13,490 nt of DNA from an uncultured archaeon (GTDB taxonomy: Archaea > Iainarchaeota > Iainarchaeia > Iainarchaeales > CSSED10-239), in NCBI GenBank assembly GCA_964463155.1, contig CAYXAY010000019.1, forward strand, positions 1 to 13,490, given 5' to 3'. The notes under the pieces were generated by a model. The model saw nothing but the letters and a program-made list of their open reading frames with translations. It did not search any database and was not told where the DNA came from. Both the position numbers and the translations under genes were made by a program. This document shows positions 110 to 13,490 of the stretch, in pieces (within the stretch, counting starts at the first letter, position 1; the number at the start of each line of letters is the position of its first letter).

Positions 110-3100
110 ATGGGAAAGAAACTATATTATTCTTTAGAAAACAAATGGTATGATTTTGTAGAAAATACAGGACTATATAAGATCACGGACAAGATAGATA
201 AGTTCATGCCGTCTTTTATATTTTTCATGCTTCTTGTGATTATGATAATTGCAGGAGTGTTCCTATTACTGCCAACAATAACTGGCGAAGGAGAAGTAGG
301 AATAACATTTAAAGTGATAGATGATTCTAGAGACCCAGTTCCACTTGCACCAGTAAGTGTCTCAACAATTGATAACTTCTACACATTAATAGCAAACGAA
401 GACGGAATCACCAGAAAAATAAATATTCCAAAAAACACAGAATACACAGTAGATATTGATTTTGTGGGAAGCAACTATGAAACATTTTCAATAGATTATT
501 TTGCAGAAGATAGTGAGCAAGTAACAATATATCTAACAGAAACCACAAGACAAACAACAACACGCTACACAGTAACATTGATTGATACATCCACAAAACA
601 AAAAATAAACGCGAACGGCAGGGCTGAGTTTACTTGTTCAAATCCAGGTGCAATAGCACCAGCTGCAGTAACAATAACAAACGGTGTGATTGATGTGAAT
701 GCTAATAGCAACTGTCAATTAAGGGCAACATCAATAACTCTTCAAGGCTATGACACAAGACATTCAACAGCTATAGGCCAGAACACAACTTCCATTGATT
801 TACAACGCACAACTATAGATTTAAAAGAAGCACATCCATTACATATCACAGTCAATGGAGAAGGCGGCGCTCCATTAACAGGAGTAACAGCAGCACTTTA
901 CGCTAATGGTGTAGCAATAGCAGGAAAAACTTGTGTAACACTTGCGGGTGTCTGTTCAATAACAGGAGTAGAAACAGGAAATTATGTCCTTAAAGTTACA
1001 GACACAAGGGTTGTCCCAGAATATGGTTCAACAAATGTTCCAATAACAATAACAGGAACAACAAACAGGACAGTTACTTTAACTAGAACAATTGCTGGTG
1101 ACATACGTGTAAAAGTAAGGAAAGCAAACGGTCAAGCAGTAGAAGGAGCAAACACTAAACTAAAATATGGAGACACAGAAATCTATAGTGGATTTTTAAC
1201 AGATGCAAATGGTTTAGTAACATTACCAGTTTATGATTTAACAAAAACATATAGAGTTGTTGTTGTAAAAGAAGGATACATGATTGCTTCACAAAGCAAT
1301 GTTACAGCAAGCGCAACAACACCAATAATAATAACCTTACAGGCAATAACCCCACAAACAGTTGCAACATTAAAGATTAGAGTTCTAAATAGCGAAACAG
1401 CAAAAGGCTTTTCTCATGCCCAAGTTGTTTTGTATGATGCTAAAACAGGATTTTTAACAGATTACGATTCACAAATAACAAACAGCGATGGAAACTGTAC
1501 ATTTAGAGTAAGCGCTGGCAGATATTATGCCAAAGCATTTAGAGGCTCATCAAGCGGCATAAGTGACGAGTTTGATTTTGATGTAAGAAATGCAACAGAC
1601 AGTAGTCCAGTAATTATTCCAATAGAGGTAGTTAAAGGAACTTTAAGAGTTTCTGTAGTAAACAACTATGGAGAGGCAGTTTCAAGAGCAAACATTATTT
1701 TATTTGACAAATATAGTTCTAGACAATCAGTGTGGGGCGGAGACCTCGCAAACATTGATGGAACATATGATATTTCTGAACTGACAGCGGACACCGAAGT
1801 TTATGCAGTAGTTTCAGATATACAGGATAACCTAGGCATGACACAATCAGAGTATGTTTATATTAGACCAGGAATTACAAACGATTTAAAAGTAACTCTT
1901 TATCCAAAGGTTTCTGCTTTACAAAAACCACAAATACAGTTTTTGGGTTTCTTTAATGATTCAGGAAACAAATTAAATGGATATTTAAGAGCTGGCGGAG
2001 ACTACAAGGCAAAATTCTTGTTATTAGTTCCACAAGAAAGAGATAGAGATGATGAGTTCCAAGAAGTTGGAGCGGTCATAAGAACTGGTTCAACAACAAG
2101 CACAGGAATCTCAACAACACCATATATGGAAAATGACAGCATTTACCTAAAATCAATTGATCTTCCAAACTCAGAGATTACAAAATACACTCAATATAGT
2201 TCTGAGGTAGGATATGATGGAATTGAAGATGAAGACACAATAACACAAGGCGATGCAAAATGGGCAAAGGTTGTTTTCAATGAAATCTATGGAAATAATT
2301 TTGCTAACGCTTATACAATAATGGCAGATGTTAAGATTAGAGATTCTGCAAGCTATGGTGAAAGAGTAAATGTCAGTTATTTGGGCTTTGGTTATAACGA
2401 AGACGATGAATATGAGACAGACCCTAATGATAATACAAATAATAATGATGTAGAATACATGACTTATAAAACAGAAAGCTTCAATATCGGAGAAGAACAA
2501 GCATGTTCAAAAGATTTCTGTTTTACTTTAAATATTACAGACCTATATGAAGACATAAGAAAAGACGTTGTTTCAGATTACACCGCAACCCCTCATCAAC
2601 ATTATAAGTTAAGGTTTGGATTAATCAATAACAATAAAAATAGAATACACAATAACTCAAGATTAGAACTTGAAAACAAAGATAAAGGCCTAACCTTTGA
2701 AAGCATAAACATAACTCAACCAAACGGGGTCCCCCAAAACATCACTCCAACAAACAACATCTACGAATATAAGATACCTGTTGAAAGATTTGACCCGCAC
2801 ACAACTCTTTCAGGAGAAATAAATTTCGTTCCTGTGTTAAAGGGAGATAGGCAGTTTGTTATTAGCTTTGTTTCTGATCAACAAGTAATATTTACAAAAC
2901 TTGTTGTAATACAGGTTTTGTCAGATAAAACATTTACTGTTAAAGTAACACCAGATGTCATACCTTCCGGAAAGAACTTCAATCTTCAAGTTGAAGTCAA
3001 AGATTCAAAGACAGGCATAGAGGTTGAAAATCCAGTAACCGTAAGAGTAAAAGATAGATTCAAAAGGGATTTGCTTGCAAACCCAGTACGAGTTGGACCA

Positions 3101-4660
3101 CTTGGAATTGCGTCAGTAAACAACATCCCTGGTCAACAATCCGGAGACAAGATTTATGTTTATGTTGAGGCACCAGAGTATGAGACAAGCATTACAGAAA
3201 AAGAAGTTACAGAAAATATCTTTAAGATTACTCCAACAAGACTAGGGGTGTCATTAAATATTAATACAAAACCACAAGACACAACAAAGTTTACACTTGA
3301 AAACCTAAGTGAAAACGAATTGACAATAGAGTCAATAAAACTAATAGGTAACGACAACCAGATTGATGTGATTGATGTCCAAAGAATAAACAATTCTCTT
3401 GCAGGATATTTCGGAACTGTAATACCTGGCTTTGACTCAAGCGAAACAGCAAACAACTACAATAACAAGCAAGAGATTGAAGCAAGATTCTTTACAAGCC
3501 CTAGAGTTGAAACAATACGCGAAGTTAGAAACATCAGCTCAAAGTTAATAATACAATTAAAGGACAAATACAATAAAGATTATGTTTGGGAAGCACAATT
3601 GCCAACAACAATAGCTGTAGGTTATGAAGGTTTAATGGACAATCCAAACTGTATAACTCTTTCAGATGGTTTCTGGGAGGCAACAGTAGTTGACAATTAT
3701 GTGGATAAGCAATTCACATTAAAGAATAATTGTGGAGTAAAGGAAAGACCAGTTCCATTAAACGGTGGCTTGTCAGCTAAAGTTGAGTTTGAAGGAAATC
3801 CATTAGGTCGGTTTACAGTAAATGTTGGAAACAGAGGCGTGGAATTATCACATGGTTATTTCAAGAACATCTATGACACAATTGACCAAGAGAAATCATA
3901 TAATGTTAATATAAGATATACTCCTGTTGGGAGATACACAGGAGACATCAAAGGTAAGATTATCTTTAGATCAGTTAATGCAACATCTTCTGGCAATCAA
4001 GAACTAATAACCGAATACAAGTTTGTATTGCATGTTGTTAGCCTAAAAGACTGTTATACAGTTTCAAAGAAAGTATTAACTGCTCCAGATACAGGACAAG
4101 CAGATGTCTTTGTCATTGAGAACAAAGGCTGTGGAGCAGAGACGATTTATAGATTGTCATGCGATGAATGTACAGGTCTTGTCATCAGCCCTAAGGAAGA
4201 TATAAAGGTTAGTGCAACAGGAACATCAGAAGAAATAAAAGTAATGTCTATGGGGGCAATGCCAGGGATGTACATACTAAACTTATATTCAAAGATAGGC
4301 GGAGCAAGAGGACATGAAAGAAATGTTGGGAGAGTAAGAGTAGAAGTAAGACCTGTAAGTCAATGTCTTGATCTTGACAGATATGAGTATGACTTGTACC
4401 GATATGCATATTCAGAAGGCAGCGGTCAAGCAACAACAGCAAAAAGCTTTGATATAGGAAACCTAATCAACCGTTGTTATGGCCAAGACGTAAAAATTAA
4501 AGGAACACTATCAGACGGGGTAAAATGGCGTGCAGCAGGCGTGAGCGGCTTAAGAGACGGGGTATTTACAGGCCTAACTTCCGCTTTAATAAAAAAAATA
4601 ATTCCAAACAAAAAGGCAAACACGGCAGAAATAAACCAGACAGCCACGGCGTCTTCATAA
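110..4660 (+). CDS. Giant membrane-anchored cell-surface protein (1,516 aa) with tandem carboxypeptidase-regulatory-like/Ig-like beta-sandwich domains and paired-Cys modules; function unknown ('A1')
   Basis: This is the longest closed ORF, running from ATG 110 to TAA 4658-4660. About 33 polar residues precede a hydrophobic helix, PSFIFFMLLVIMIIAGVFLLLP. Residues ~63-598 read as six repeats of ~85-90 aa. An example is IRVKVRKANGQAVEGANTKLKY..TDANGLVTLPV..YRVVVVKEGY, i.e. the 'V.V.D..G.P..GA.V.L...TD.NG.....L..G.Y.h.h..GY' pattern of CarboxypepD_reg/prealbumin-like folds. The C-terminal half contains Cys pairs (CSKDFC, NPNC..KNNC, KDC..NKGC). The protein is rich in Thr/Asn/Ile and no enzymatic motif was recognised. 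Confidence 0.9.
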   Translation: MGKKLYYSLENKWYDFVENTGLYKITDKIDKFMPSFIFFMLLVIMIIAGVFLLLPTITGEGEVGITFKVIDDSRDPVPLAPVSVSTIDNFYTLIANEDGITRKINIPKNTEYTVDIDFVGSNYETFSIDYFAEDSEQVTIYLTETTRQTTTRYTVTLIDTSTKQKINANGRAEFTCSNPGAIAPAAVTITNGVIDVNANSNCQLRATSITLQGYDTRHSTAIGQNTTSIDLQRTTIDLKEAHPLHITVNGEGGAPLTGVTAALYANGVAIAGKTCVTLAGVCSITGVETGNYVLKVTDTRVVPEYGSTNVPITITGTTNRTVTLTRTIAGDIRVKVRKANGQAVEGANTKLKYGDTEIYSGFLTDANGLVTLPVYDLTKTYRVVVVKEGYMIASQSNVTASATTPIIITLQAITPQTVATLKIRVLNSETAKGFSHAQVVLYDAKTGFLTDYDSQITNSDGNCTFRVSAGRYYAKAFRGSSSGISDEFDFDVRNATDSSPVIIPIEVVKGTLRVSVVNNYGEAVSRANIILFDKYSSRQSVWGGDLANIDGTYDISELTADTEVYAVVSDIQDNLGMTQSEYVYIRPGITNDLKVTLYPKVSALQKPQIQFLGFFNDSGNKLNGYLRAGGDYKAKFLLLVPQERDRDDEFQEVGAVIRTGSTTSTGISTTPYMENDSIYLKSIDLPNSEITKYTQYSSEVGYDGIEDEDTITQGDAKWAKVVFNEIYGNNFANAYTIMADVKIRDSASYGERVNVSYLGFGYNEDDEYETDPNDNTNNNDVEYMTYKTESFNIGEEQACSKDFCFTLNITDLYEDIRKDVVSDYTATPHQHYKLRFGLINNNKNRIHNNSRLELENKDKGLTFESINITQPNGVPQNITPTNNIYEYKIPVERFDPHTTLSGEINFVPVLKGDRQFVISFVSDQQVIFTKLVVIQVLSDKTFTVKVTPDVIPSGKNFNLQVEVKDSKTGIEVENPVTVRVKDRFKRDLLANPVRVGPLGIASVNNIPGQQSGDKIYVYVEAPEYETSITEKEVTENIFKITPTRLGVSLNINTKPQDTTKFTLENLSENELTIESIKLIGNDNQIDVIDVQRINNSLAGYFGTVIPGFDSSETANNYNNKQEIEARFFTSPRVETIREVRNISSKLIIQLKDKYNKDYVWEAQLPTTIAVGYEGLMDNPNCITLSDGFWEATVVDNYVDKQFTLKNNCGVKERPVPLNGGLSAKVEFEGNPLGRFTVNVGNRGVELSHGYFKNIYDTIDQEKSYNVNIRYTPVGRYTGDIKGKIIFRSVNATSSGNQELITEYKFVLHVVSLKDCYTVSKKVLTAPDTGQADVFVIENKGCGAETIYRLSCDECTGLVISPKEDIKVSATGTSEEIKVMSMGAMPGMYILNLYSKIGGARGHERNVGRVRVEVRPVSQCLDLDRYEYDLYRYAYSEGSGQATTAKSFDIGNLINRCYGQDVKIKGTLSDGVKWRAAGVSGLRDGVFTGLTSALIKKIIPNKKANTAEINQTATASS
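209..274 (+). other. N-terminal transmembrane/signal-anchor helix of gene 1 (aa 34-55)
   Basis: An uninterrupted hydrophobic run, PSFIFFMLLVIMIIAGVFLLLP, follows a Lys/Asp-rich leader (..YKITDKIDKFM). No signal-peptidase-like A-x-A site is obvious. Confidence 0.7.
296..1903 (+). other. Array of six tandem ~85-90-aa beta-sandwich (CarboxypepD_reg-like) domains in gene 1
   Basis: Repeated starts are VGITFKVID, RYTVTLID, LHITVNGE, IRVKVRKA, LKIRVLNS and LRVSVVNN. Each is followed by a '(T)D.(N/D)G' turn and a '..Y.h.h' strand. The array ends at Tyr598. Confidence 0.55.
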
Positions 4661-4793
4661 AAACAGTCCTCCGAAGACCAAGCAGAATAGGCTGGTTTAG
4701 TCAATACACGGGTGAGTTTAACTTCAGCCGATGCAAAATACAAAATGTAAATAAGTAACTAATATATTAAAATTTAATAATAAAAAAACATAA

Positions 4794-4797
4794 GGTG
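4794..4797 (+). promoter_or_regulatory. Shine-Dalgarno-like (AA)GGTG for gene 2
   Basis: GGTG lies 7 nt upstream of ATG 4805. I saw no hairpin plus T-run between genes 1 and 2, so co-transcription is plausible. Confidence 0.45.
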
Positions 4798-4804
4798 TAA
4801 AAAA

Positions 4805-4882
4805 ATGAAATCAAATCTAAAATTTGTTTTAGGACTAACAATGGCTTTGTTGCTATTGTTTAGTGTAGGAAATGTTTATGCG
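4805..4882 (+). other. Predicted Sec-type signal peptide of gene 2 (aa 1-26, cleavage after VYA)
   Basis: A basic n-region (MKSNLK) precedes the hydrophobic core FVLGLTMALLLLFSV and a small-residue c-region (GNVYA). Confidence 0.7.
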
Positions 4883-7708
4883 GGGGGTACTTCTAACAAT
4901 AACACCACAGCAACACTCTCCGCCTTACAGTCTGCCTTTAATCTGATTACTGGCGTTTTTGGCAAGCTTGTCGGTGGACCGTTCTGGCTACACGGTATTG
5001 TCGCAGGAGCAACATCTGCATTTAAAACATACAGTGCTCTTGATCAAACAATCAAAATGAATCTAAGAAGTGAAAGAGTAAATGTCTCTGACAACGAGTT
5101 TGTTTCAGAGGACGCAAAAAAAGAACTAAGGATTGATTTTGACAACAACGTAGTATTAACAGACCAAAATGTATTAGATATTGATTTCATAGTTACAAGA
5201 AAAGCAAAAGAGTTTAAAGATACACAAGGACGAGAAAAAAGCCCAAAAATCAGATGGGCAGAAAAAACAGAGACAATAGATGTTATAGATGTTAATAACC
5301 AAAAAACAAAAGGACAAAAAAGAGCAATATTGTTTGAAGACTTAAACCAAACAATAAAGCAAGCATCAGAATATAGAACATTAGTAATTGAATACAAACA
5401 AGCAGAGTTTGGAAGACAGCCAGTAAAGATAACAATTGAAGACATTGACGATTTATATGGCAATGGAATGAGCTGGTTAAGAGTATTTACAACAGGTGTA
5501 GACCAGGCAAAGGAAAAACTTATTGACAGAATGGACAATTTAGAAAACGTATATGCTAAAAGAGAACCAAACCCATCACCAAACAAAGCACAAAAATTCC
5601 GTTTATTATTCAACTCAAGAGTAGATGATAATGAGACAATAAGCTCAGAACTACTTGATTGTACAAACGAAAAAGGAGACCCGATAGGTTCAACAGGAAC
5701 AGAAGTATTACCAAAAGTAGCATACAATTGGGACTTTAAAGAAAATAACACAGTAATCCCAATAGCTGGGGAAACTTCAAAAGTAGTAAACAACACTTGG
5801 TGTGATGTTGCAACAAATGGAATATATTGTGATGCAACACAAACAACAATAGAAGTATTACAAAAAATAAACACAATAAATGAGTTTGTAGAACTACATC
5901 GCGCAAACTTCACTTGCCCAACAGGAGCAGAAACACAAAACCTAGCAAGTGACATTAACAATGTTGGAATTGTTTATCTAAATGTAACTTCAGTTACTGA
6001 AAAAAAAGCAACATTTGAATACAAGATAAGAGGGAATTATCAAACTACAATACTACCTGCACCAAGAACACTATTTGATATTAACTATACTGTTCAAAAG
6101 AAGGCAGAGAATTCATTTAATTGGATAACAATAGCATCAGGGACAAAAATAATCGGTCACGAATACCTAAATAATGGCATCATAGATGAAACAATCCAAT
6201 CAACCTTTTCAACAGCAGCAACCGCAGAGGACACTATAAAAATAAAAGTATTCTTAACAAACTTTAATGCAATAATATCAAACAATGAAATTGGAAACAA
6301 CATAATAGACAATTCTTTAGAAGTTCAAACAAGTATAGAAGGGGGAACAGCAGGATGTACTCTAGAAAAGACAACAGAAAACCTAAAGAAATACCATCCT
6401 GAGTTTGATGAAAAACTATACAACTTCAAAGCATATCTAATGAAAGATGGATACAGTAATGATTTCAAGAAGGACTTTGATGAATATTACAGATTAACAT
6501 TTAACACAGGAATACCGAACTGGTATGATAATGCTGAAACATCATATTCTCCATTATACAAATACTTTATAGATCCGCAAAAATTCAAATTCAAACAAAG
6601 ATTTGCTAACGAAATTGAACAAACTATGCTTCCGGGACCAGGAAGATACAATGTAAAGATACTGATATATTATGATGATAATTGGAAACTATTCAATGAC
6701 AGAGGAGACATAACAGGAAAGATAGAGATCATTCTTGACAAAGAACAAAATCCAGAGCTTGATTCTCCACTATACTATATGCCACTTGACGGAATGGTAG
6801 GAAGCACAGGAGACAAGACAAGAAATGGCTATGGTGTAGATTATTTAGATGATAAGGTTCCAATATTTTTAGATTCTCAACACAATTATACTACAGCAAT
6901 GTTTACTGAAGGCTATCTTTCTTCAAACACAATTTCAACAATAAAGACAAAAGAGATAAAGGACTTTTCTACAATGAACAACGGAAACGAAAGAGGAAAG
7001 CTATTATCAATAACTAGAGCGCAAAACAATATATTAAACTTAAGATATATACCCTCAAGACCAACACCAGTAGCATTAAAAGTAACAAACACAAAAGCAA
7101 ACACACATGCCTATGCTTTCTATAAGTTATCAGTTGGTTTACCAATAGATCAAGGCGGAGAAGTTGCAACACCTGGTTTAAGTCTAGCAAATTGGACAGG
7201 AATTGGAGCAAGCAAACAATGTAGAGACTTTTCTGGAATACCAATACTTGAAAGATTCCTAGCAAGTGATGACCTTGTTTCAACAGAATCAGAACTAGGA
7301 CCAGTAACTCAAAGCCAAAGCCACAGTTATGGTGTTGAATGGAATAAGAATATTATCAGAAGAACAGGAAATGTTTGGTTATATACAATATTCTACACTC
7401 CTGCAAATTTCAAGACAGGCCCAGGAATAAGTTATTTGTATATTGATTCTGCAAACGACAATGCATTATTGTTTACAATAGATAACACTCAAAGAGACGG
7501 AAGTCAAAACGTAGCCTTAAAAAATAGATTTGAAAAAGACATTAAATCAATAACTGATGTCTTTGAATTAGTAAAAAACAAAAATGCATGTATATACAAC
7601 GACAGCAAATCACTAGATGTATTCTACAATCCAAAGAAAATCTCAGAGCCATTGACAGACGCTATTGAACACGGCCTAGACAGAGAAGGTGCTTGTATAA
7701 AGCACTAG
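4805..7708 (+). CDS. Secreted 967-aa protein with 8 Cys, unknown family ('B1'), probable partner of gene 1
   Basis: The ORF runs from ATG 4805 to TAG 7706-7708. The N-terminus MKSNLKFVLGLTMALLLLFSVGNVYA|GG is a classical n-h-c signal peptide with no lipobox Cys. It is followed by a Gly/Ala-rich hydrophobic stretch (aa ~43-73). The mature part has an even number of Cys (8). No catalytic motif such as HExxH was recognised. Confidence 0.9.
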   Translation: MKSNLKFVLGLTMALLLLFSVGNVYAGGTSNNNTTATLSALQSAFNLITGVFGKLVGGPFWLHGIVAGATSAFKTYSALDQTIKMNLRSERVNVSDNEFVSEDAKKELRIDFDNNVVLTDQNVLDIDFIVTRKAKEFKDTQGREKSPKIRWAEKTETIDVIDVNNQKTKGQKRAILFEDLNQTIKQASEYRTLVIEYKQAEFGRQPVKITIEDIDDLYGNGMSWLRVFTTGVDQAKEKLIDRMDNLENVYAKREPNPSPNKAQKFRLLFNSRVDDNETISSELLDCTNEKGDPIGSTGTEVLPKVAYNWDFKENNTVIPIAGETSKVVNNTWCDVATNGIYCDATQTTIEVLQKINTINEFVELHRANFTCPTGAETQNLASDINNVGIVYLNVTSVTEKKATFEYKIRGNYQTTILPAPRTLFDINYTVQKKAENSFNWITIASGTKIIGHEYLNNGIIDETIQSTFSTAATAEDTIKIKVFLTNFNAIISNNEIGNNIIDNSLEVQTSIEGGTAGCTLEKTTENLKKYHPEFDEKLYNFKAYLMKDGYSNDFKKDFDEYYRLTFNTGIPNWYDNAETSYSPLYKYFIDPQKFKFKQRFANEIEQTMLPGPGRYNVKILIYYDDNWKLFNDRGDITGKIEIILDKEQNPELDSPLYYMPLDGMVGSTGDKTRNGYGVDYLDDKVPIFLDSQHNYTTAMFTEGYLSSNTISTIKTKEIKDFSTMNNGNERGKLLSITRAQNNILNLRYIPSRPTPVALKVTNTKANTHAYAFYKLSVGLPIDQGGEVATPGLSLANWTGIGASKQCRDFSGIPILERFLASDDLVSTESELGPVTQSQSHSYGVEWNKNIIRRTGNVWLYTIFYTPANFKTGPGISYLYIDSANDNALLFTIDNTQRDGSQNVALKNRFEKDIKSITDVFELVKNKNACIYNDSKSLDVFYNPKKISEPLTDAIEHGLDREGACIKH

Positions 7709-7721
7709 TTTTTTTATTTTT
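7689..7721 (+). terminator. Hairpin plus oligo-T terminator overlapping the gene 2 stop codon
   Basis: GTGCTT (7689-7694) pairs perfectly with AAGCAC (7700-7705) around the 5-nt loop GTATA. This is followed by TAG, then T7 (7709-7715), A, T5 (7717-7721) and further T-runs. It is compatible with a bacterial intrinsic terminator or an archaeal oligo-T terminator. Confidence 0.6.
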
Positions 7722-7798
7722 GTAATTTTTAAATTTTTACCCCTCTATTTATAAGATTTACAAAAAAATCAAACCTATGATGTTAAATACTTAGTAAT

Positions 7799-8041
7799 AT
7801 GATTTATATGCGGAAAACTATGAAGTTTGACATTGTTCTAGAAAAACAAAAAGAAGGCGGTTATACAGTCTATGTTCCATCTTTGCCTGGTTGCATCTCC
7901 CAAGGCGAGACAGAAAAAGAAGCCATAACAAATATTAGAGAAGCAATAGAAATGTATATTGAAGAAATCAATTCAAATAAACTAAAAACCATGTTAAATT
8001 CTTTTTCTATCAAACAAACACAAGTGACTATTAATGTATAA
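7799..8041 (+). CDS. hicB: HicB-family antitoxin (UPF0150/HicB-like), short form without a recognisable DNA-binding domain
   Basis: MKFDIVLEKQKEGGYTVYVPSLPGCISQGETEKEAITNIREAIEMYIEE matches the HicB N-terminal consensus (..E..e.GGY.a.VP.LPGC.sqG.T.eEA..n.keAIe.yle). The true start may be ATG 7808 or ATG 7820 (MKFD..), both in frame. The TAA stop is at 8039-8041. It overlaps hicA by 8 nt. Confidence 0.85.
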   Translation: MIYMRKTMKFDIVLEKQKEGGYTVYVPSLPGCISQGETEKEAITNIREAIEMYIEEINSNKLKTMLNSFSIKQTQVTINV

Positions 8042-8252
8042 GATTGATAATCTTTCAGCTAAGGATGTAATAAAGATTTTGCAACTTAAAGGTTATTTTA
8101 TACTAAGACAAAAAGGCAGTCACATGCTACTTAAAAACAAAGACAACAAAATAATGGTCATTCCAAACCACAAAACCCTAAAAATAGGAACAACGCGTCA
8201 AATAATCAAATCTATTGACTTAATAAAGCAAGGAGTTGAAAGATTATTATAG
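8034..8252 (+). CDS. hicA: HicA-family mRNA-interferase toxin (YcfA-like)
   Basis: LSAKDVIKILQLKGYFILRQKGSHMLLKNKDNKIMVIPNHKTLKIGTTRQIIKSIDL matches the HicA consensus (l..kelik.L.k.Gf...RqkGSH..l.......t.vP.H..elk.GTl..IlkqagL), including the GSH histidine. Its ATG lies within the end of hicB (ATGTATAA overlap), which indicates translational coupling. The TAG stop is at 8250-8252. Confidence 0.9.
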   Translation: MYKIDNLSAKDVIKILQLKGYFILRQKGSHMLLKNKDNKIMVIPNHKTLKIGTTRQIIKSIDLIKQGVERLL

Positions 8253-8322
8253 CCACAATTAACTTCTTAACTTAAATAACCAATAACCTTTAAATATCTT
8301 TCTTTCTCTAATATAAATAGAT

Positions 8323-8330
8323 TTTAAATA
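8323..8330 (+). promoter_or_regulatory. TATA-box-like TTTAAATA about 20-25 nt upstream of ATG 8349 (candidate archaeal-type promoter, short or absent leader)
   Basis: TTTAAATA is centred about 23 nt upstream of the start codon of gene 5. Only a degenerate GGATGTG (8334-8340) is available as an SD. AT-rich background makes chance TATA-like matches common. Confidence 0.25.
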
Positions 8331-8348
8331 TATGGATGTGAAAAGATT

Positions 8349-11300
8349 ATGTCATTTGCTTTAAAATACCAGGCATTTTTAGAGAAAATAAATACTAGAA
8401 TGCCAATCAAATGGTTAACAAAACCAATAGATAAGATTCATCCTCTAACTTCTTTTTTCGTGTTTATATTAATAGTCTTAGCAATATTGTTCTTTATCTT
8501 TAAACCACACATTCTTCCTGAAGCAAAAATAGAATACATGTCTTTTACAATAGGTCTTACAGACAGCAATGGACAGCTACTTAAAAACTTTGAGTTTGAA
8601 ATAAAAAATTTCAAAGACAATGTAACTCAAACCCATAGGACAGGAAACAACGGGCAGTTAATCATTGAACTTGACAAGTTTGGACATTATTCTATTATTG
8701 TTGACAAAAAAGGATATAAGTACACAGAAGAGTCAATTGATTTGTCAAGAGACAAACAACACTTTGTAATACAATTATTTAGTCTTCCAACAACCCAAAA
8801 CAAAGCCTTAATGTTTGTTGGAACTGACGGCAAACCAATTTCTGAAAACCTAAATGTTACAATCACTTGCCGAGACGGAACTACAATAGACCCATCAACA
8901 GCAACAGTGATAAACGGAACAGGAAACTTTACGGTTCCAGTATCCTGTAATTATCTTGTTGCAACCGCTATAGGAAACACATATTCTGGACAAAACATTC
9001 CAATCAACCAAACAACAGGAATAGTGACTGTTCCTCCAAGAGCAGCAAACACAAGCGTTGGAAGAGTGACAATAAAAACTAGTAGTAATAATAATTTTTT
9101 AGATAGAATAACACTAAGAATATACAAGGAAGGAAACACCATTGATTCAATTGCTTCTGGACAAACAACAACAGGTTACAAGTCTTTTGCAAACATAGAG
9201 ACAGGAAACTATATAGTTATTGCAACAGACGATTCGTTAAGATATCAAACAGCAAACTCAACATTTACTGTCACAAAAAACACAGAAACACAAGTGACAA
9301 TTGACTTGGTTCCAATTGCAGGAAACGAAACGACCCCAGGAATAAACACAAGAGACATAAAAGTCATAGTAAAGGATTTAGATACAAACCAAGAGCTAGA
9401 CTCAACATCTCTAACAAACATAATCTTAACAACAACAATTGGTGGTTCTCCTCAAACAGTAGACACAAAACCATATGTTTCTGCAGGAGTAATCTTTAGA
9501 ATTGATTCAAGCAAGCAATATTCATTAACTGTAAGAGCAGAAGGCTATATTGCCCAAGTAAAAAACATAACACCAAACATTAATGATTATATGATTTTTT
9601 TAGAAAAAGAAACAGTAAGCAATGTTTCTGATATCAATGTCAGTGTGAGAGATGAAGACAACCTTCCAGTAATCGGTGCAACACTATTGATTTATGATGG
9701 TAGTTCTGAATTTTTAGATACTAGATTTAGATCAGTAATAACTGACAATAACGGCAGCACAAGCTTTGATAACATACCAAGAGGATATTATTTTATTAGG
9801 CTAAGAAAAAACAATGTTGTTTCTCAATCCCCAAAATTTAATCATAATCCTCCAAGCGACACAAATCTTTCAATGAACATCAACATAGGTCAAGGAACAA
9901 TCAATCTTACAATAAAAAATACCGCTAATGAGATTATTAATTTTGCAAACATAAGGATATTTGATATTAGTGGAAGAGAAATAGGAGTTGACCAGGCAAC
10001 GCAAGCAGGAACATACACAAGGAGACTAAAAGCCGACAAGACGGTTTATATAAAGATTTCAAAAGACGGCTATTTTGATTATTACACAGAGTTATTGCCA
10101 ATTATTGGTGGAGAAACAATCAACAAAGAAATAAAACTAACAAGACTAGGGACAATAAATGTTCCAACAGCAGAGCTTGTTGGTTTATATAATATGCAAG
10201 ACCGTTCTGCAACCCACTTAACCCAAAACACAAGATATTATTTCAAGTTTAGAATCATTAATCCGAGTTCAGGAAACATTGGTTTAAGGTTTATGATTGG
10301 AGAGAAAAATACAGCAACAGAAGACATAGTTTATATAAAACCAATAACAGACTCCAAAGCAAACATTAGTTATTATAGTAATACAAACCTTGACATTGTT
10401 GCTCAAGATGTTCCTGCAAAAATAGCGGACGCAATCTTTGTAAATGCTAGTCAAGCAGTATATGAACTATTAATACCAGTAACCACTGTACAAGCAAGAA
10501 GAGGGCAAGCAATTCCTATCTATTATTCTGTTTTTACTGCTAATCCTCCAGCAATAAATAACCTAACAAACCAAAATGTCTATTACATTGATGTTTCAGA
10601 AATATGTTCAGAAAACTTTTGTATATCAGGCCAATATCTTGATATTGAAAGTGATATTATTTATGACTTGTCTACAACAAACCCAATGGTTGTAAACAAA
10701 AACTATGACTTAAAATATGTTTTAACAAACGCAAAGTCAAATGTTTACATAGGTAATAGACTGTCAATAACAAATGTAGAAAACTCGTCAGAAATGCAAG
10801 CGCATTCAATTGATATTAGCTATTACAATATCTTTGGTAATGGTTTTTCATACACCAGTAATTCTGGAAACCAATTAAGAAACAAAATACCATTTACTTC
10901 TGAGTTCTTGAATCTACCACAGATTAATGTTTATGATAAGATTAATATTAACTCCAAAATAAAACCAGCAGTTCTTGGAACAACAAGATTGCAAAACAAG
11001 ATAATCTCTAACCAAGCAATAGCATATAACCAATTCATTAGTTTTAATGTTTCACAACAATATCCTTTCACAATAGATTATGAACCAAAGAACATAGTTC
11101 CAGGAAGGCCATTTAACATGACAGTAACTGCTCTTGGCAACTCGGCAATACCAGTAAACAACGCCATAGTAAATGTTTATCAAAGACTTGCAAACAACCA
11201 GCTAGTAACAGTAACAAATGGAAGCTTTAGAACAAACGATTATGGACAAGCAATTGTTGCTCTTCCAGCAGTGCGAAATGGTGAAAAAATAATTATTGCT

Positions 11301-13490
11301 GTTGAGAAAAGCGGATATTACGCTCAACCATTAGAGATAACAATAACTCAAAACATCTTGTCTTTAAAGCAAGGAACAACAGCAGTAACTGACAATGCGC
11401 CATTTACAATTAATGTTCATAAGTCAAATGCTCTTGGCACAGAAAAAACATTAACAATAATAAATAAGACAAACTACCCATTAAGATTAAAGCAATTTAG
11501 AGACGATAGTTTTAGCTTTAGAAATTCAAACTATTTAAATATAGAACAATTACAAAACCACTTAAACAGCCAAGTAGATGGTATAGTTATTCCAGCTAAT
11601 GGTGAAGACAACCTAAAAATAAAATTATCAGCATCTCAAGATGCAACAAATGTCACAGAAACAATAAACATAACCGGAAACATAATAGGTTATGTCACTG
11701 TTGACAACTCAATAACAGAATATCCTTTCAATATCCCAATGAATGTTAAGATTTCAGTTGGAGAAGGAGTAGAAGCAGACGATTGTTTAACATTTACAGG
11801 AATGAGCAATCCTTTTGAGGCAGTTGTTGGAGGAAATGGCTTTACAACAGAAAGCTTTACAATAATAAACAACTGTAAAAGAAAAGGAAACGATGAACAA
11901 GGCGTTGTTCTAAACGCTCTAAGGGCAAAAGTTGTAAACACAAAAGACCAATATGGTTATTACACTTTAAGAGTAAGAGAAAGAACAATAACACTTTCAG
12001 AAGGCGCTTACACAACAATACTTAGTGATTTAGAGCCTGGCCCATATGATGCTACACTAACCTATTACTCCATGGATAAAAAGATTGGAGATGTAGAAAG
12101 CAAGATTTACATTAATGCTCAGATAGAGACAGACACTGGTTTAAAATATGTAAACACAACAAGAGATGTTGCATTTACAACAAAGATAGCAATAAGAAAG
12201 ATAGAAGACTGTATTGACTTCTATGATGACGGCAAAAAGATAAACAACATGCTTGTTATTCCTAAAGAAATCAACACAACAGAAGTAAAAGACATAACAA
12301 TAAAAAACAACTGCTCAACACTTGGAAGATTTAAGTTATACTTTTGTGGAGAATACAAAGAATATGAGGGTTGTCAAGAACTAAGATACGAAAACATGCT
12401 AGGATATCTACAAAACGAGCTAAGCTTCAATCTTGGAGAAGACTCACAAATTGTAGGAATCATTAAGCCAGATGTTCCTGGTGGCTATATAATCCCAGTA
12501 AGAGTATCAATCTTAAGCGACAGCGGAAGAGCAATAGCAACTGTTGAAAAAAGACTAAAAGTAAATGTACAGTCAGGAAGAGCAAACAGCCTATACATGG
12601 TAGATCCATTTATTGAAGTAGAAAAAGTAATAACTTCTAGAAATCAAAACACCTATGTAAGTCCAGAAGTCAAGCTACTAAACAGCGACATCAACAAGAC
12701 TCCTTGGTATTATGCTACACGGAAAGTTGGTGATACTGGATTTAGTAAATATATGAATGAATTTTCGCCGGAATCAAGTGTATTAGAGAAAGTTATATTT
12801 GTTAATTTTGAAACATTTACAGTTAATAAAGAAGGCATGGATTCATTTTTGCGTGGTTGGGTAGAAGCCACATATATAATAGGTATGTCGGTTATTTCAT
12901 TCGTTTGTTTGGTTTGTGCATTGGCTCTATTGACGGTTCAAATAGTTGATTGGTTATTACCGTCATTAACTAACAACTATAAAGAAGATGTAACTTATAA
13001 TATGCCAAAAATCTATGAAGATTTCTTAAAAACTAGCCCAGATATAGAAAAAGCGAAAACAATAAATGTTGTTGGTAATACCGATACAGCATATATTTCT
13101 ATAATTGACATTACGGGTGCGAGATATAGACAATTATATAATTTAAAAAATCATATACACGGGAAATTAATAAGCGATATTACTATTTCCCAAAAATTGG
13201 ATTTGTGTTCAAAAAATAATTACCAAACTGTTGGCGCAGATGCGTTTTGGAGTGAAAACCCAAAAAACTGTGATAATTTAAGAGTTACTACTGATGGTAC
13301 CGGATATAAATACACAGTAGATTGTGATGGCGCTTGGAATTTTGGTAGCAAAAAGATCGATGCAACATATAATGGCATATTAGAATGTAGATTTAATGAA
13401 ACAATTTGGCCAGAGCAAGCAGGCATCAAACCCCTTATCTTTAATGTGTCGGATACAAATTTAATTAATAGACTAAAAATGGGCGAAACA
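8349..13490 (+). CDS. Second giant surface protein, 3'-truncated by the window edge (>=1,714 aa). It is a paralogue of gene 1 ('A2') that continues past an internal TM helix into a Cys-containing tail ('B2'-like).
   Basis: This ORF is not in the ORF track. I translated the frame by hand, codon by codon, from ATG 8349 to base 13490 and found no stop. The nearest upstream in-frame stop is TAA 8325-8327, and ATG 8349 is the first ATG after it. The product starts MSFALKYQAFLEKINTRMPIKWLTKPIDKIHPLTSFFVFILIVLAILFFIF, followed by six CarboxypepD_reg-like repeats (e.g. INVSVRDEDNLPVIGATLLIYD..TDNNGSTSFDNIPRGYYFIRL). It then has CSENFC, DDC..INNC and EDC..KNNC modules collinear with gene 1. Confidence 0.9.
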   Translation, partial: MSFALKYQAFLEKINTRMPIKWLTKPIDKIHPLTSFFVFILIVLAILFFIFKPHILPEAKIEYMSFTIGLTDSNGQLLKNFEFEIKNFKDNVTQTHRTGNNGQLIIELDKFGHYSIIVDKKGYKYTEESIDLSRDKQHFVIQLFSLPTTQNKALMFVGTDGKPISENLNVTITCRDGTTIDPSTATVINGTGNFTVPVSCNYLVATAIGNTYSGQNIPINQTTGIVTVPPRAANTSVGRVTIKTSSNNNFLDRITLRIYKEGNTIDSIASGQTTTGYKSFANIETGNYIVIATDDSLRYQTANSTFTVTKNTETQVTIDLVPIAGNETTPGINTRDIKVIVKDLDTNQELDSTSLTNIILTTTIGGSPQTVDTKPYVSAGVIFRIDSSKQYSLTVRAEGYIAQVKNITPNINDYMIFLEKETVSNVSDINVSVRDEDNLPVIGATLLIYDGSSEFLDTRFRSVITDNNGSTSFDNIPRGYYFIRLRKNNVVSQSPKFNHNPPSDTNLSMNINIGQGTINLTIKNTANEIINFANIRIFDISGREIGVDQATQAGTYTRRLKADKTVYIKISKDGYFDYYTELLPIIGGETINKEIKLTRLGTINVPTAELVGLYNMQDRSATHLTQNTRYYFKFRIINPSSGNIGLRFMIGEKNTATEDIVYIKPITDSKANISYYSNTNLDIVAQDVPAKIADAIFVNASQAVYELLIPVTTVQARRGQAIPIYYSVFTANPPAINNLTNQNVYYIDVSEICSENFCISGQYLDIESDIIYDLSTTNPMVVNKNYDLKYVLTNAKSNVYIGNRLSITNVENSSEMQAHSIDISYYNIFGNGFSYTSNSGNQLRNKIPFTSEFLNLPQINVYDKININSKIKPAVLGTTRLQNKIISNQAIAYNQFISFNVSQQYPFTIDYEPKNIVPGRPFNMTVTALGNSAIPVNNAIVNVYQRLANNQLVTVTNGSFRTNDYGQAIVALPAVRNGEKIIIAVEKSGYYAQPLEITITQNILSLKQGTTAVTDNAPFTINVHKSNALGTEKTLTIINKTNYPLRLKQFRDDSFSFRNSNYLNIEQLQNHLNSQVDGIVIPANGEDNLKIKLSASQDATNVTETINITGNIIGYVTVDNSITEYPFNIPMNVKISVGEGVEADDCLTFTGMSNPFEAVVGGNGFTTESFTIINNCKRKGNDEQGVVLNALRAKVVNTKDQYGYYTLRVRERTITLSEGAYTTILSDLEPGPYDATLTYYSMDKKIGDVESKIYINAQIETDTGLKYVNTTRDVAFTTKIAIRKIEDCIDFYDDGKKINNMLVIPKEINTTEVKDITIKNNCSTLGRFKLYFCGEYKEYEGCQELRYENMLGYLQNELSFNLGEDSQIVGIIKPDVPGGYIIPVRVSILSDSGRAIATVEKRLKVNVQSGRANSLYMVDPFIEVEKVITSRNQNTYVSPEVKLLNSDINKTPWYYATRKVGDTGFSKYMNEFSPESSVLEKVIFVNFETFTVNKEGMDSFLRGWVEATYIIGMSVISFVCLVCALALLTVQIVDWLLPSLTNNYKEDVTYNMPKIYEDFLKTSPDIEKAKTINVVGNTDTAYISIIDITGARYRQLYNLKNHIHGKLISDITISQKLDLCSKNNYQTVGADAFWSENPKNCDNLRVTTDGTGYKYTVDCDGAWNFGSKKIDATYNGILECRFNETIWPEQAGIKPLIFNVSDTNLINRLKMGET
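8448..8501 (+). other. N-terminal transmembrane/signal-anchor helix of gene 5 (aa 34-51)
   Basis: The hydrophobic run TSFFVFILIVLAILFFIF follows the leader ..KPIDKIHPL, in the same position and context as in gene 1. Confidence 0.7.
8538..10148 (+). other. Array of six tandem beta-sandwich (CarboxypepD_reg-like) domains in gene 5
   Basis: Repeat starts are MSFTIGLTD, ALMFVGTD, GRVTIKTS, IKVIVKDL, INVSVRDE and INLTIKNT. The array ends at about residue 600, against 598 in gene 1. Confidence 0.55.
12873..12947 (+). other. Internal hydrophobic (transmembrane-like) helix of gene 5, aa 1509-1533
   Basis: YIIGMSVISFVCLVCALALLTVQIV is the only long hydrophobic run after the N-terminal anchor. It is flanked by ..FLRGWVEAT and DWLLPSL. 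Confidence 0.6.

Follow-up and report, generated by a model that had tools for sequence, protein, structure and literature searches.

A GC-rich gene junction in a DPANN-like archaeal contig as a plausible site of fission in a two-module giant surface protein

Why should one junction between two very large genes of an AT-rich archaeal contig be so distinct in composition? The stretch of DNA analysed here (the window) has a length of 13,490 nt and is an entire contig of an archaeal metagenome-assembled genome (MAG) from NCBI, with an overall G+C content (GC) of about 33.6%. Its positions 4470-5040 comprise the end of gene 1, the beginning of gene 2 and the DNA between them. In an earlier reading of the sequence, hereafter the original prediction, this patch was described as Gly/Ala-rich, and a glycine-zipper-like segment behind the signal peptide of gene 2 was likened to membrane-inserting elements. 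On balance, though only just, we consider it probable that a giant surface protein with two modules, belonging to a DPANN-like archaeon, was split into two genes at this patch, and that a hairpin left behind at this point retains the gene 2 module at the cell.

Relatives of these genes, designated here by L or P numbers, were found in unclassified 'archaeon' MAGs and in one Candidatus (Ca.) Iainarchaeum MAG (L016); Ca. Iainarchaeum is placed in Iainarchaeota, kingdom Nanobdellati (DPANN). One L016 protein of 2731 aa (L016_2731) matches both genes. Gene 1 aa 1-1488 correspond to its aa 11-1469 (E = 1e-91), and gene 2 aa 260-950 to its aa 2088-2719 (E = 1e-43). Two-part matches likewise occur in L007_2504, L015_2302p and L016_b, and profile matches were obtained in four fused proteins. 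Gene 5, located further downstream in the window, shares 50-66% identity with fused proteins of relatives that are about 2500 aa long and consist of a gene 1-like N-part and a gene 2-like C-part. As the two neighbours match consecutive, non-overlapping parts of a single chain, they qualify as a gene fission/fusion pair. Gene 1 and gene 2 (1516 + 967 = 2483 aa) are thus the split form of a two-module giant protein that is a single chain elsewhere.

The place where the two modules meet has features of its own. As canonical criterion of a transmembrane (TM) segment we used a Kyte-Doolittle 19-residue mean of at least 1.6 and an apparent insertion free energy (Hessa sum) near or below 0. In four of five fused proteins, a Gly/Ala-rich stretch with TM-grade hydrophobicity lies at the module joint, with Kyte-Doolittle means of 1.7-2.8 and Hessa sums of -3.0 to +1.9 (Table 1). 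It comprises two helices in three of these proteins and is shorter in gene 5, where it aligns with the two-helix stretches of the orthologues L007_2504 and L015 and runs collinear with the N-terminal part of gene 2. The remaining protein, the fused Iainarchaeum orthologue L016_2731, lacks a strong hydrophobic stretch and, with nothing hydrophobic ahead of the equivalent segment, also a signal peptide. Its weak Gly/Ala segment GVITDWGIGLMGGNAIFGALLAGLFSWF shares the pattern GN[AP]I..G.L..G...S.[FY] with the gene 2 segment. The order of elements is collinear as well: the hydrophobic segment is followed by a (R/K)(V/I)N(I/L) motif (N93) and then by NVLDVD (D125 invariant). The interval from the segment end to the conserved V-E-I/(R/K)-V-N-I motif (N93) measures about 19 aa in L016_2731, as against 20 in gene 2. 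The segment and the joint are equated on the basis of position and collinearity, rather than of similarity between the segments themselves. Because this site is strongly hydrophobic and rich in Gly/Ala in the fused paralogues of gene 5 type, a membrane-related origin of the gene 2 segment is plausible.

An equivalent junction in gene 5 had been proposed at about 12720-12960, together with a shift towards G/C-ending codons. The equivalence of the junction was borne out, on stronger grounds than had been proposed, but the shift is absent, with 18 G/C-ending third positions (GC3) against 21.3 expected (z = -0.95). Five of the 80 codons in this interval are NCG or CGG, as compared with 1% across the three big genes; these are small numbers, and GC3 is not raised. 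As for L016, it holds two adjacent giant genes (740-8935 and 9850-15897), both of the fused architecture, and one L016 giant has an insert of about 400 aa, low-complexity or coiled-coil, between the two junction motifs.

In gene 2 the segment appears to consist of a helix a, a G-G-P turn and a helix b. It was found in all 12 full-length homologues, which align with gene 2 end to end at 50-58% identity, and in one further homologue with 38% identity. Its consensus reads [GN][GN]-P-[IVL]-[LIV]-[TH]-G-[LVI]-[VI]-G-[GA]-[AG]-x-S-[AG]-[YF]-x-[ST]-Y-x-x-L-D, with P59, G64, S71, Y76 and L79 invariant among gene 2 homologues. Helix b displays a ridge of small residues (G64, G67/G68, S71/A72). Gly and Ala make up 32% of the segment as opposed to 12% of the whole gene 2 product. 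Peculiar to the window are an additional tryptophan, W61 (4985-4987), and the G-G-P turn itself, in place of which most orthologues have G-N-P. The peptide strings originally given for the patch, and the position 4931-5023 of the gene 2 segment, are correct. The spacing of small residues emphasized there does exist (G53-x3-G57, G64-x3-G68, A67-x3-S71, G68-x3-A72), but such pairs are no more numerous than in shuffled sequences (p = 0.5). The positions are conserved, the frequency is ordinary. An AlphaFold2 (AF2) model of gene 2, built from 13 sequences, has low-confidence helices at 36-52 and 60-79 that flank the G-G-P turn.

Alternatively, the segment could serve neither membrane contact nor docking and be an unremarkable part of the gene 2 structure, namely a flexible linker or a helix pair that rests on the foremost globular domain, with the raised GC as a by-product of composition. 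This would agree with its hydropathy, which stays below the TM thresholds among orthologues (Kyte-Doolittle 1.23-1.53, Hessa sum +3.7 to +7.4 kcal/mol). It would also agree with a conservation of 0.69, about equal to and not above the protein average of 0.74, with the small-x3-small count expected from composition, and with the lack of a glycine-zipper family match. No Pfam profile of this kind was matched by the whole proteins at E <= 0.1 or by eight junction segments at E <= 10. Against an ordinary element speak the TM-grade hydrophobicity of the equivalent stretch in four fused paralogues and the invariant P59, which together with the G64/G67/S71 face suggests a specific helix-helix or lipid-facing surface. 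Moreover, gene 2 would after the predicted cleavage have no other evident means of being retained at the cell. We regard this explanation as rather unlikely. As to the likeness to membrane-inserting elements, what stands is the plausible membrane-related origin indicated by the fused paralogues; the gene 2 segment itself is below TM thresholds and matches no glycine-zipper family.

The original prediction went further and suggested contact with a host membrane. In this view, a secreted or distal module would display the segment as a glycine zipper, resembling a fusion peptide or a toxin, that inserts into the membrane of a host cell. Its action would be comparable to that of viral class I fusion peptides or of the glycine zipper in LXG toxins such as TelE. 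Its location is compatible with this, being N-proximal behind a predicted signal-peptidase site, and so are its Gly/Ala content, moderate hydrophobicity and conserved small-residue ridge. Hydrophobicity too low for integration by the translocon would permit export, which might be followed by post-translocational insertion. Further, the relatives include a DPANN lineage, giant surface proteins of other DPANN archaea have been proposed to act in host interaction (PMC10266531), and glycine zippers are known from toxins that render target membranes unstable (PMC10765036). Yet searches of Pfam, NCBIfam, PDB and Foldseek revealed no homology to fusogen or toxin families, and the stretch of the fused paralogues is hydrophobic enough to expect integration by the cell's own translocon. 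A role of this kind therefore strikes us as distinctly improbable. Marginally less credible still is the specific version in which the conserved sub-TM hairpin of gene 2 and of the fused orthologue is exported intact and inserts into the host membrane after translocation, as a fusion-peptide-like or pore-forming glycine zipper. If it were true, gene 1 and gene 2 would constitute a contact or cytoplasmic-bridge device, of which the TM-grade versions of the paralogues would be the self-anchored form.

Upstream of the segment, gene 2 aa 1-26 appear, by inspection, to form a class I Sec signal peptide with charged n-region, h-region and small residues at -3/-1. Its core has a Kyte-Doolittle 19-residue mean of 1.98-2.56 and a Hessa sum of about -1.8 to +0.9, and V/I-x-A precedes the predicted cut in all 13 gene 2 orthologues. 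The ATG is preceded at a distance of 7 nt by a Shine-Dalgarno-like GGTG (4794-4797), and the leader pattern AAAGGTGT...ATG is found in L007 and L017 too. Between the predicted cleavage site and the segment lies a hypervariable linker. Residues 27-50 are the least conserved part of gene 2 (column identity 0.41 vs 0.74 overall). The linker is polar in the window, rich in Asn and Thr, and Gly/Val-rich in most homologues.

On the other side of the junction, gene 1 ends with a shortened tail. L001 has its closest full-length homologue (1863 aa), with 74% identity through ...SGLRDGVFTGL and divergence beyond. The final conserved element across relatives is W(K/R)xAxxSGLRDG(V/L)FTGL, present in L007, L010, L011, L013, P0014 and P0015. 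A likeness, suggestive only, is seen between the gene 1 motif AGVSGLRDGVFTGL and the residues at the start of helix 1 in paralogues (L007_2504 GASGLAQAGYYTGG, L016_b WASGLVGAGIGAG). Tail length, counted past the shared 12-residue motif, is 25 aa in the window, 116 in L007, 199 in L013, 226 in L010, 327 in L011 and 369 in L001; the fragments P0014 and P0015 have tails of at least 125 and at least 172 aa. Tails of homologues are hypervariable, with Cys-rich repeats, Pro/Ser/Thr/Glu repeats and alternative C-terminal domains. The repeats are either tandem Cys-rich units of about 25 aa (NVCTPAC..T.ECVNG.C.LK) or PSATE/PPATE units, and at least two alternative C-terminal domains occur at the very end. 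Examples are L001 8860-9975, L004 3-587 and the tails of L011, L017 and P0014.

What remains of the tail in the window is still recognizable. Tails of L011 and P0014 match VFTGLTSALIKKIIPNKKA of the window (tblastn, E about 3e-5), and homology to them extends as far as nt 4618 (..IIPNKKA; ...ALIKKIIPNKKA), with the stop following 13 codons later. By blastn, window 4450-4575 corresponds to L001 8733-8858 and 4760-4810 to L001 9960-10006, with no match between. The breakpoints at 4575 and 4760 therefore leave about 1.1 kb of L001 without a counterpart. The non-coding part of the stretch unmatched in relatives (4661-4740) has a GC of 0.44, as compared with 0.12-0.21 in the other intergenic stretches of the contig. 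In relatives with full tails, the spacer between the gene 1 stop and the gene 2 start is 25-30 nt long with a GC of 0.10-0.14. In L007, the other short-tail relative, it measures 155 nt (9806-9960), has a GC of 0.41, carries a faint Cys-repeat-like remnant and likewise has the look of decayed coding DNA; the L010 spacer is long as well (242 nt, GC 0.31). Judged by these comparisons, 4619-4759 is probably decayed tail-coding DNA, left after a loss of about 1.1 kb relative to L001. No frame of this stretch scores positive for coding-like codon usage. Past IIPNKKA, tblastn of 4560-4810 gave no significant match to a frameshifted continuation of gene 1 or to remnants of the relatives' tails, and a 24-mer drawn from the unmatched stretch had no exact match in metagenome contigs. 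A search with the C-terminal part of gene 1 yielded three fragments only.

Returning to the fission reading, the following history may be proposed. The fused state would be ancestral; fusion is seen in the outgroup orthologue and in every paralogue, so that parsimony favours fission. In fused paralogues, the hydrophobic stretch would dip out-in-out into the cell's own membrane, with both ectodomains remaining outside. Such a hairpin is the simplest arrangement because a TM-grade two-helix stretch sits between two large exported modules, and it fits both the signal peptide that gene 2 bears in the split form and the conserved cysteines of gene 2. After fission, export of gene 2 would have required a new signal peptide, which the fused orthologue lacks. 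The residual hairpin of gene 2, a vestigial anchor or docking element, may then keep the exported module at the cell surface, either through a position within the membrane interface or through association with the conserved motif at the gene 1 C-terminus, which would restore the ancestral hairpin without a covalent link. Since cleaved gene 2 would have no other anchor, a C-terminal one included, the hairpin is the best candidate for this role.

Several points weigh against this reading. Given its sub-TM hydropathy, the gene 2 segment is not predicted to insert into the membrane of its own cell, and hydropathy was assessed with simple scales rather than with a trained topology predictor. The AF2 model, with a mean predicted local distance difference test score (pLDDT) of 40.8, is uninformative for the N-terminus. 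The fused proteins examined number five, and the gene 5 stretch of about 31-35 residues is short for a two-pass hairpin. A hidden Markov model (HMM) profile of the gene 2 N-terminus finds its best match at the equivalent site, not significantly (E = 0.16, -3.6 bits). The direction, fission as against fusion, is argued by parsimony only. Finally, the region is rich in repeats, which may have misled the assembly and produced the short tail of gene 1 as an artefact, and no second assembly of the strain was found.

How much of the GC anomaly is then left to be explained? All 60-nt GC counts reported for the patch are exact: 56.7% (4501-4560), 50.0% (4621-4680), 41.7% (4681-4740) and 43.3/50.0/45.0% (4861-5040), with 28.3% at 2401-2460 as a typical internal stretch. 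The contig-wide 60-nt maximum, 58.3%, is situated at 4502-4561, about 3.7 standard deviations above the mean (33.7%, standard deviation 6.6). Expected GC was derived from the amino acid sequence and the window's own codon usage. For gene 1 4505-4564 it is 0.49 (observed 0.57), and for gene 2 4880-5014 it is 0.35-0.46 (observed 0.45-0.53). The bulk of the rise over the background of 0.34 is therefore attributable to Gly/Ala/Arg/Pro content. The caveat that Gly/Ala codons underlie part of the rise was thus borne out, and they account for most of it. The spike is chiefly made of the GGN, GCN, CGN and CCN codons of the junction motifs. In line with this, GC of gene 2 codons 10-70 is raised in all four homologues tested: in L001, L004 and L008 the GC of the gene peaks at these codons (0.46-0.49 vs gene means of 0.29-0.33), and in L007 they reach 0.47, but the maximum of that gene lies elsewhere.

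A 10-nt direct repeat, AGACGGGGTA, had also been noted within the patch. Its second copy is where it was placed, while the first was misplaced by 1 nt (Table 1). Chance alone would give about 0.3 such pairs per 800 nt by our estimate. Since the same DGV codons are used twice and copy 1 is not conserved in L001, the repeat is trivial, and we rejected it as a feature. Inverted repeats flanking a possible invertible segment were sought as well; only weak pairs at chance level were found.

Beyond amino acid composition, a small excess of G/C-ending codons flanks the junction on both sides (gene 1 4490-4657, z = 2.4; gene 2 4883-5023, z = 2.96, within the top 0.6% of 47-codon windows). This could be taken as a trace of recombination, in which DNA of a relative with higher GC took the place of the gene 1 tail and of the N-terminal part of gene 2 and left a mosaic tract; this would account for the missing tail too. 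In favour of such an event, neither protein varies more anywhere than in its tail (gene 1) or its linker (gene 2), and some relatives have a far higher GC3 (0.385 in L007 vs 0.244 in the window). The signal-peptide codons between both patches, on the contrary, have no excess (z = -0.69), and no donor sequence was found by blastn to L001 or in searches of metagenome contigs. With about 4200 codons, or about 90 independent windows, the excess itself is marginal. Nor is the gene 2 excess consistent among homologues: the window alone has a strong one (z = 4.2), that of L001, L004 and L008 is weak, and L007 has a negative value. We therefore find a recombination tract very improbable, although it is compatible with fission and does not exclude it. 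A rare-codon 'ramp' after the signal peptide was rejected, as the conserved cluster of G/C-ending codons that it predicts was not seen across homologues.

The last explanation considered was that the GC-rich stretch encodes a structured RNA or an antisense membrane protein of 88 aa, as might be suggested by raised GC in an AT-rich genome and by an open antisense reading frame with a TM-like stretch. The region is, however, not present in relatives. Rfam gave no match at E <= 1 for the whole window, and the tRNA scan found none. RNA folding of 4500-4760, a check recommended together with the original prediction, did not support a structured RNA, both strands folding no better than shuffled sequences (z = +1.4 and +0.9). 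The same was observed for 4860-5040 (z = +0.43). The antisense open reading frame (ORF) has no homologue among 1.84 billion representative proteins and a codon-usage log-likelihood of -4.6 bits. With these results and its overlap with conserved coding sequence of gene 1, it was judged spurious, and it should not be called as a gene in annotation. We consider an RNA or antisense product hardly conceivable. Another antisense ORF, 5044-5961 on the minus strand within gene 2 (305 aa), is hydrophobic and Ser/Phe-rich, and resembles a shadow ORF of an AT-rich coding strand.

Table 1. Positions of the junction elements and of neighbouring genes in the window, with the module joints of fused relatives
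Feature	Position	Strand	Remarks
Gene 1	110-4660		1516 aa; N-terminal membrane anchor and CarboxypepD_reg domain
Spurious antisense ORF	4477-4743	-	88 aa; TM-like stretch; overlaps conserved plus-strand coding sequence of gene 1
Direct repeat, copy 1 (AGACGGGGTA)	4513-4522	+	Codons S-DGV; not conserved in L001
Last conserved block of gene 1 (WRAAGVSGLRDGVFTGLTS)	4526-4582	+	aa 1473-1491; Gly/Ala/Arg-rich, within the GC maximum
Direct repeat, copy 2 (AGACGGGGTA)	4555-4564	+	Codons R-DGV of the conserved motif; conserved in L001
Shortened hypervariable tail of gene 1 (ALIKKIIPNKKANTAEINQTATASS) and stop	4583-4660	+	aa 1492-1516
Stretch unmatched in relatives	4619-4759		Last 13 codons of gene 1, then high-GC non-coding DNA
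AT-rich leader of gene 2	4760-4804	+	GC 0.12; 82% identity to L001 9960-10006
Gene 2	4805-7708		967 aa, Cys-containing; no family match
Predicted Sec-type signal peptide of gene 2	4805-4882	+	aa 1-26; MKSNLK, 15-aa hydrophobic core, GNVYA
Hypervariable linker of gene 2	4883-4936	+	aa 27-44
Conserved Gly/Ala-rich hydrophobic segment of gene 2	4937-5032	+	aa 45-76; putative helix a, G-G-P turn, putative helix b
HicB/HicA toxin-antitoxin pair	7799-8252		Between gene 2 and gene 5 (interval 7709-8348)
Gene 5	8349 to contig end		>1714 aa; gene 1 paralogue, 24% identity
Joint stretch of gene 5 (FLRGWVEATYIIGMSVISFVCLVCALALLTVQIVDWLLPSL; FLRGWVEATYIIGMSVISFVCLVCALALLTVQIVDWLLP)	12846-12968	+	aa 1500-1540; Kyte-Doolittle 2.77, Hessa -3.0; within TM range
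Joint of L007_2504			GSAIAAIALTLSVAGVGGLSFLV-P-LAAFLGPVGIGFIAILSVVAFVAPLF; Kyte-Doolittle 2.55, Hessa -0.2; within TM range
Joint of L015			...AAATITVALLIGLKTIIVTGSIVPPFGWILAGTAAIAMLVTPIF; Kyte-Doolittle 2.14, Hessa +1.1; close to TM range
Joint of L016_b			WASGLVGAGIGAGLAYMVTGALPMSTIYGGGWISGGLIIGAGIAGLLIGG; Kyte-Doolittle 1.74, Hessa +1.9; close to TM range

The surroundings of the junction are listed in Table 1. In gene 1, the N-terminal membrane anchor is followed by an ectodomain of about 1450 aa rich in beta-sandwiches. A conserved cytoplasmic motif of about 35 aa (..Y..E.KWY.F.......K..D.IDK..PSF) precedes the anchor in giants of both gene 1 type and gene 5 type; it is located at 110-290 and 8349-8520 in the window and also at the N-termini of L010, L011, L013, L015 and L016. 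In all loci that reach far enough (L001, L004, L007, L008), two to three large genes separate gene 2 from the next giant gene of CarboxypepD_reg/SpaA type. In L001, L004 and L008 the intervening genes encode about 1100-1490 aa, then about 620-640 aa. No remnant of the intervening gene pair of L001 was detected in the window by tblastn.

Taken together, the patch is real and conserved, and its compositional oddity is largely ordinary, resulting from Gly/Ala codons and a decayed tail remnant. For annotation this implies that GC spikes in AT-rich genomes can merely mark Gly/Ala-rich hydrophobic elements. What is added is an architecture in which a giant surface-protein family probably underwent fission at a hydrophobic, hairpin-like element, and which may be modelled as anchor, stalk, hairpin and distal module. 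The proteins appear to represent an uncharacterised and unannotated family within the giant membrane-anchored surface proteins of DPANN archaea. Searches of Pfam, NCBIfam and PDB sequences found no relative of gene 2, Foldseek of the gene 2 model against PDB returned generic beta-sandwich matches only, and a profile search using an alignment with the fused paralogues did not widen the family. It sits in clusters of giant surface-protein genes in small-genome archaea and may bear on attachment to a partner, possibly on exchange of material. Gene 2 aa 43-76 provide a short testable peptide, and the gene 1 C-terminal motif and the gene 2 hairpin are a candidate interaction.

Among known systems, glycine-zipper hairpins are similar in their Gly/Ala-rich region of about 30-50 aa, in two helical stretches about a turn (of low confidence in the AF2 model) and in a conserved ridge of small residues; the L016_b version, WASGLVGAGIGAGLAYMVTGAL...GGGWISGGLIIGAGIAGLLIGG, is especially like them. 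Pfam has a 'Glycine zipper 2TM' family (PF05433) and Gly-zipper_Omp and YMGG families. In contrast to these, the segment has no Pfam match and belongs to an archaeal giant protein instead of a small bacterial outer-membrane lipoprotein. Class I fusion peptides of viruses, such as those of HIV gp41 and influenza HA2, offer a further comparison; they lie at or near an N-terminus that proteolytic maturation creates and precede a heptad-repeat coiled coil in a trimeric hairpin fold. LXG toxins of the type VII secretion system (TelE/EsxX) carry a glycine-zipper motif that is bacteriocin-like (PMC10765036). The likeness to both is superficial and consists in an exported protein having, near its N-terminus, a segment that is rich in Gly/Ala and moderately hydrophobic; the gene 2 segment begins about 18-25 aa past the predicted signal-peptidase site. 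It has no sequence or fold relationship to either, and gene 2 has no LXG domain.

Giant membrane-anchored surface proteins of nanohaloarchaea, the 'SPEARE' type, have been proposed as host-interaction devices (PMC10266531). They are likewise very large, beta-sandwich-rich, membrane-anchored and extracellular, and are clustered in small archaeal genomes. The present proteins appear to be of a different family, set apart by their Pfam domains, which are of beta-sandwich type only, with no ATPase domain. With class I Sec signal peptides, gene 2 shares a charged n-region, a 15-aa core and small -3/-1 residues, as do all 13 orthologues. A parallel in organization is offered by 'Rosetta stone' fission/fusion pairs of multidomain surface proteins, in that adjacent genes on the same strand are collinear with one polypeptide elsewhere and with paralogues at the same locus. 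Unlike in such pairs, the break falls here at a hydrophobic hairpin-like element, and the downstream half has a predicted signal peptide, whereas the fused Iainarchaeum orthologue is without one.

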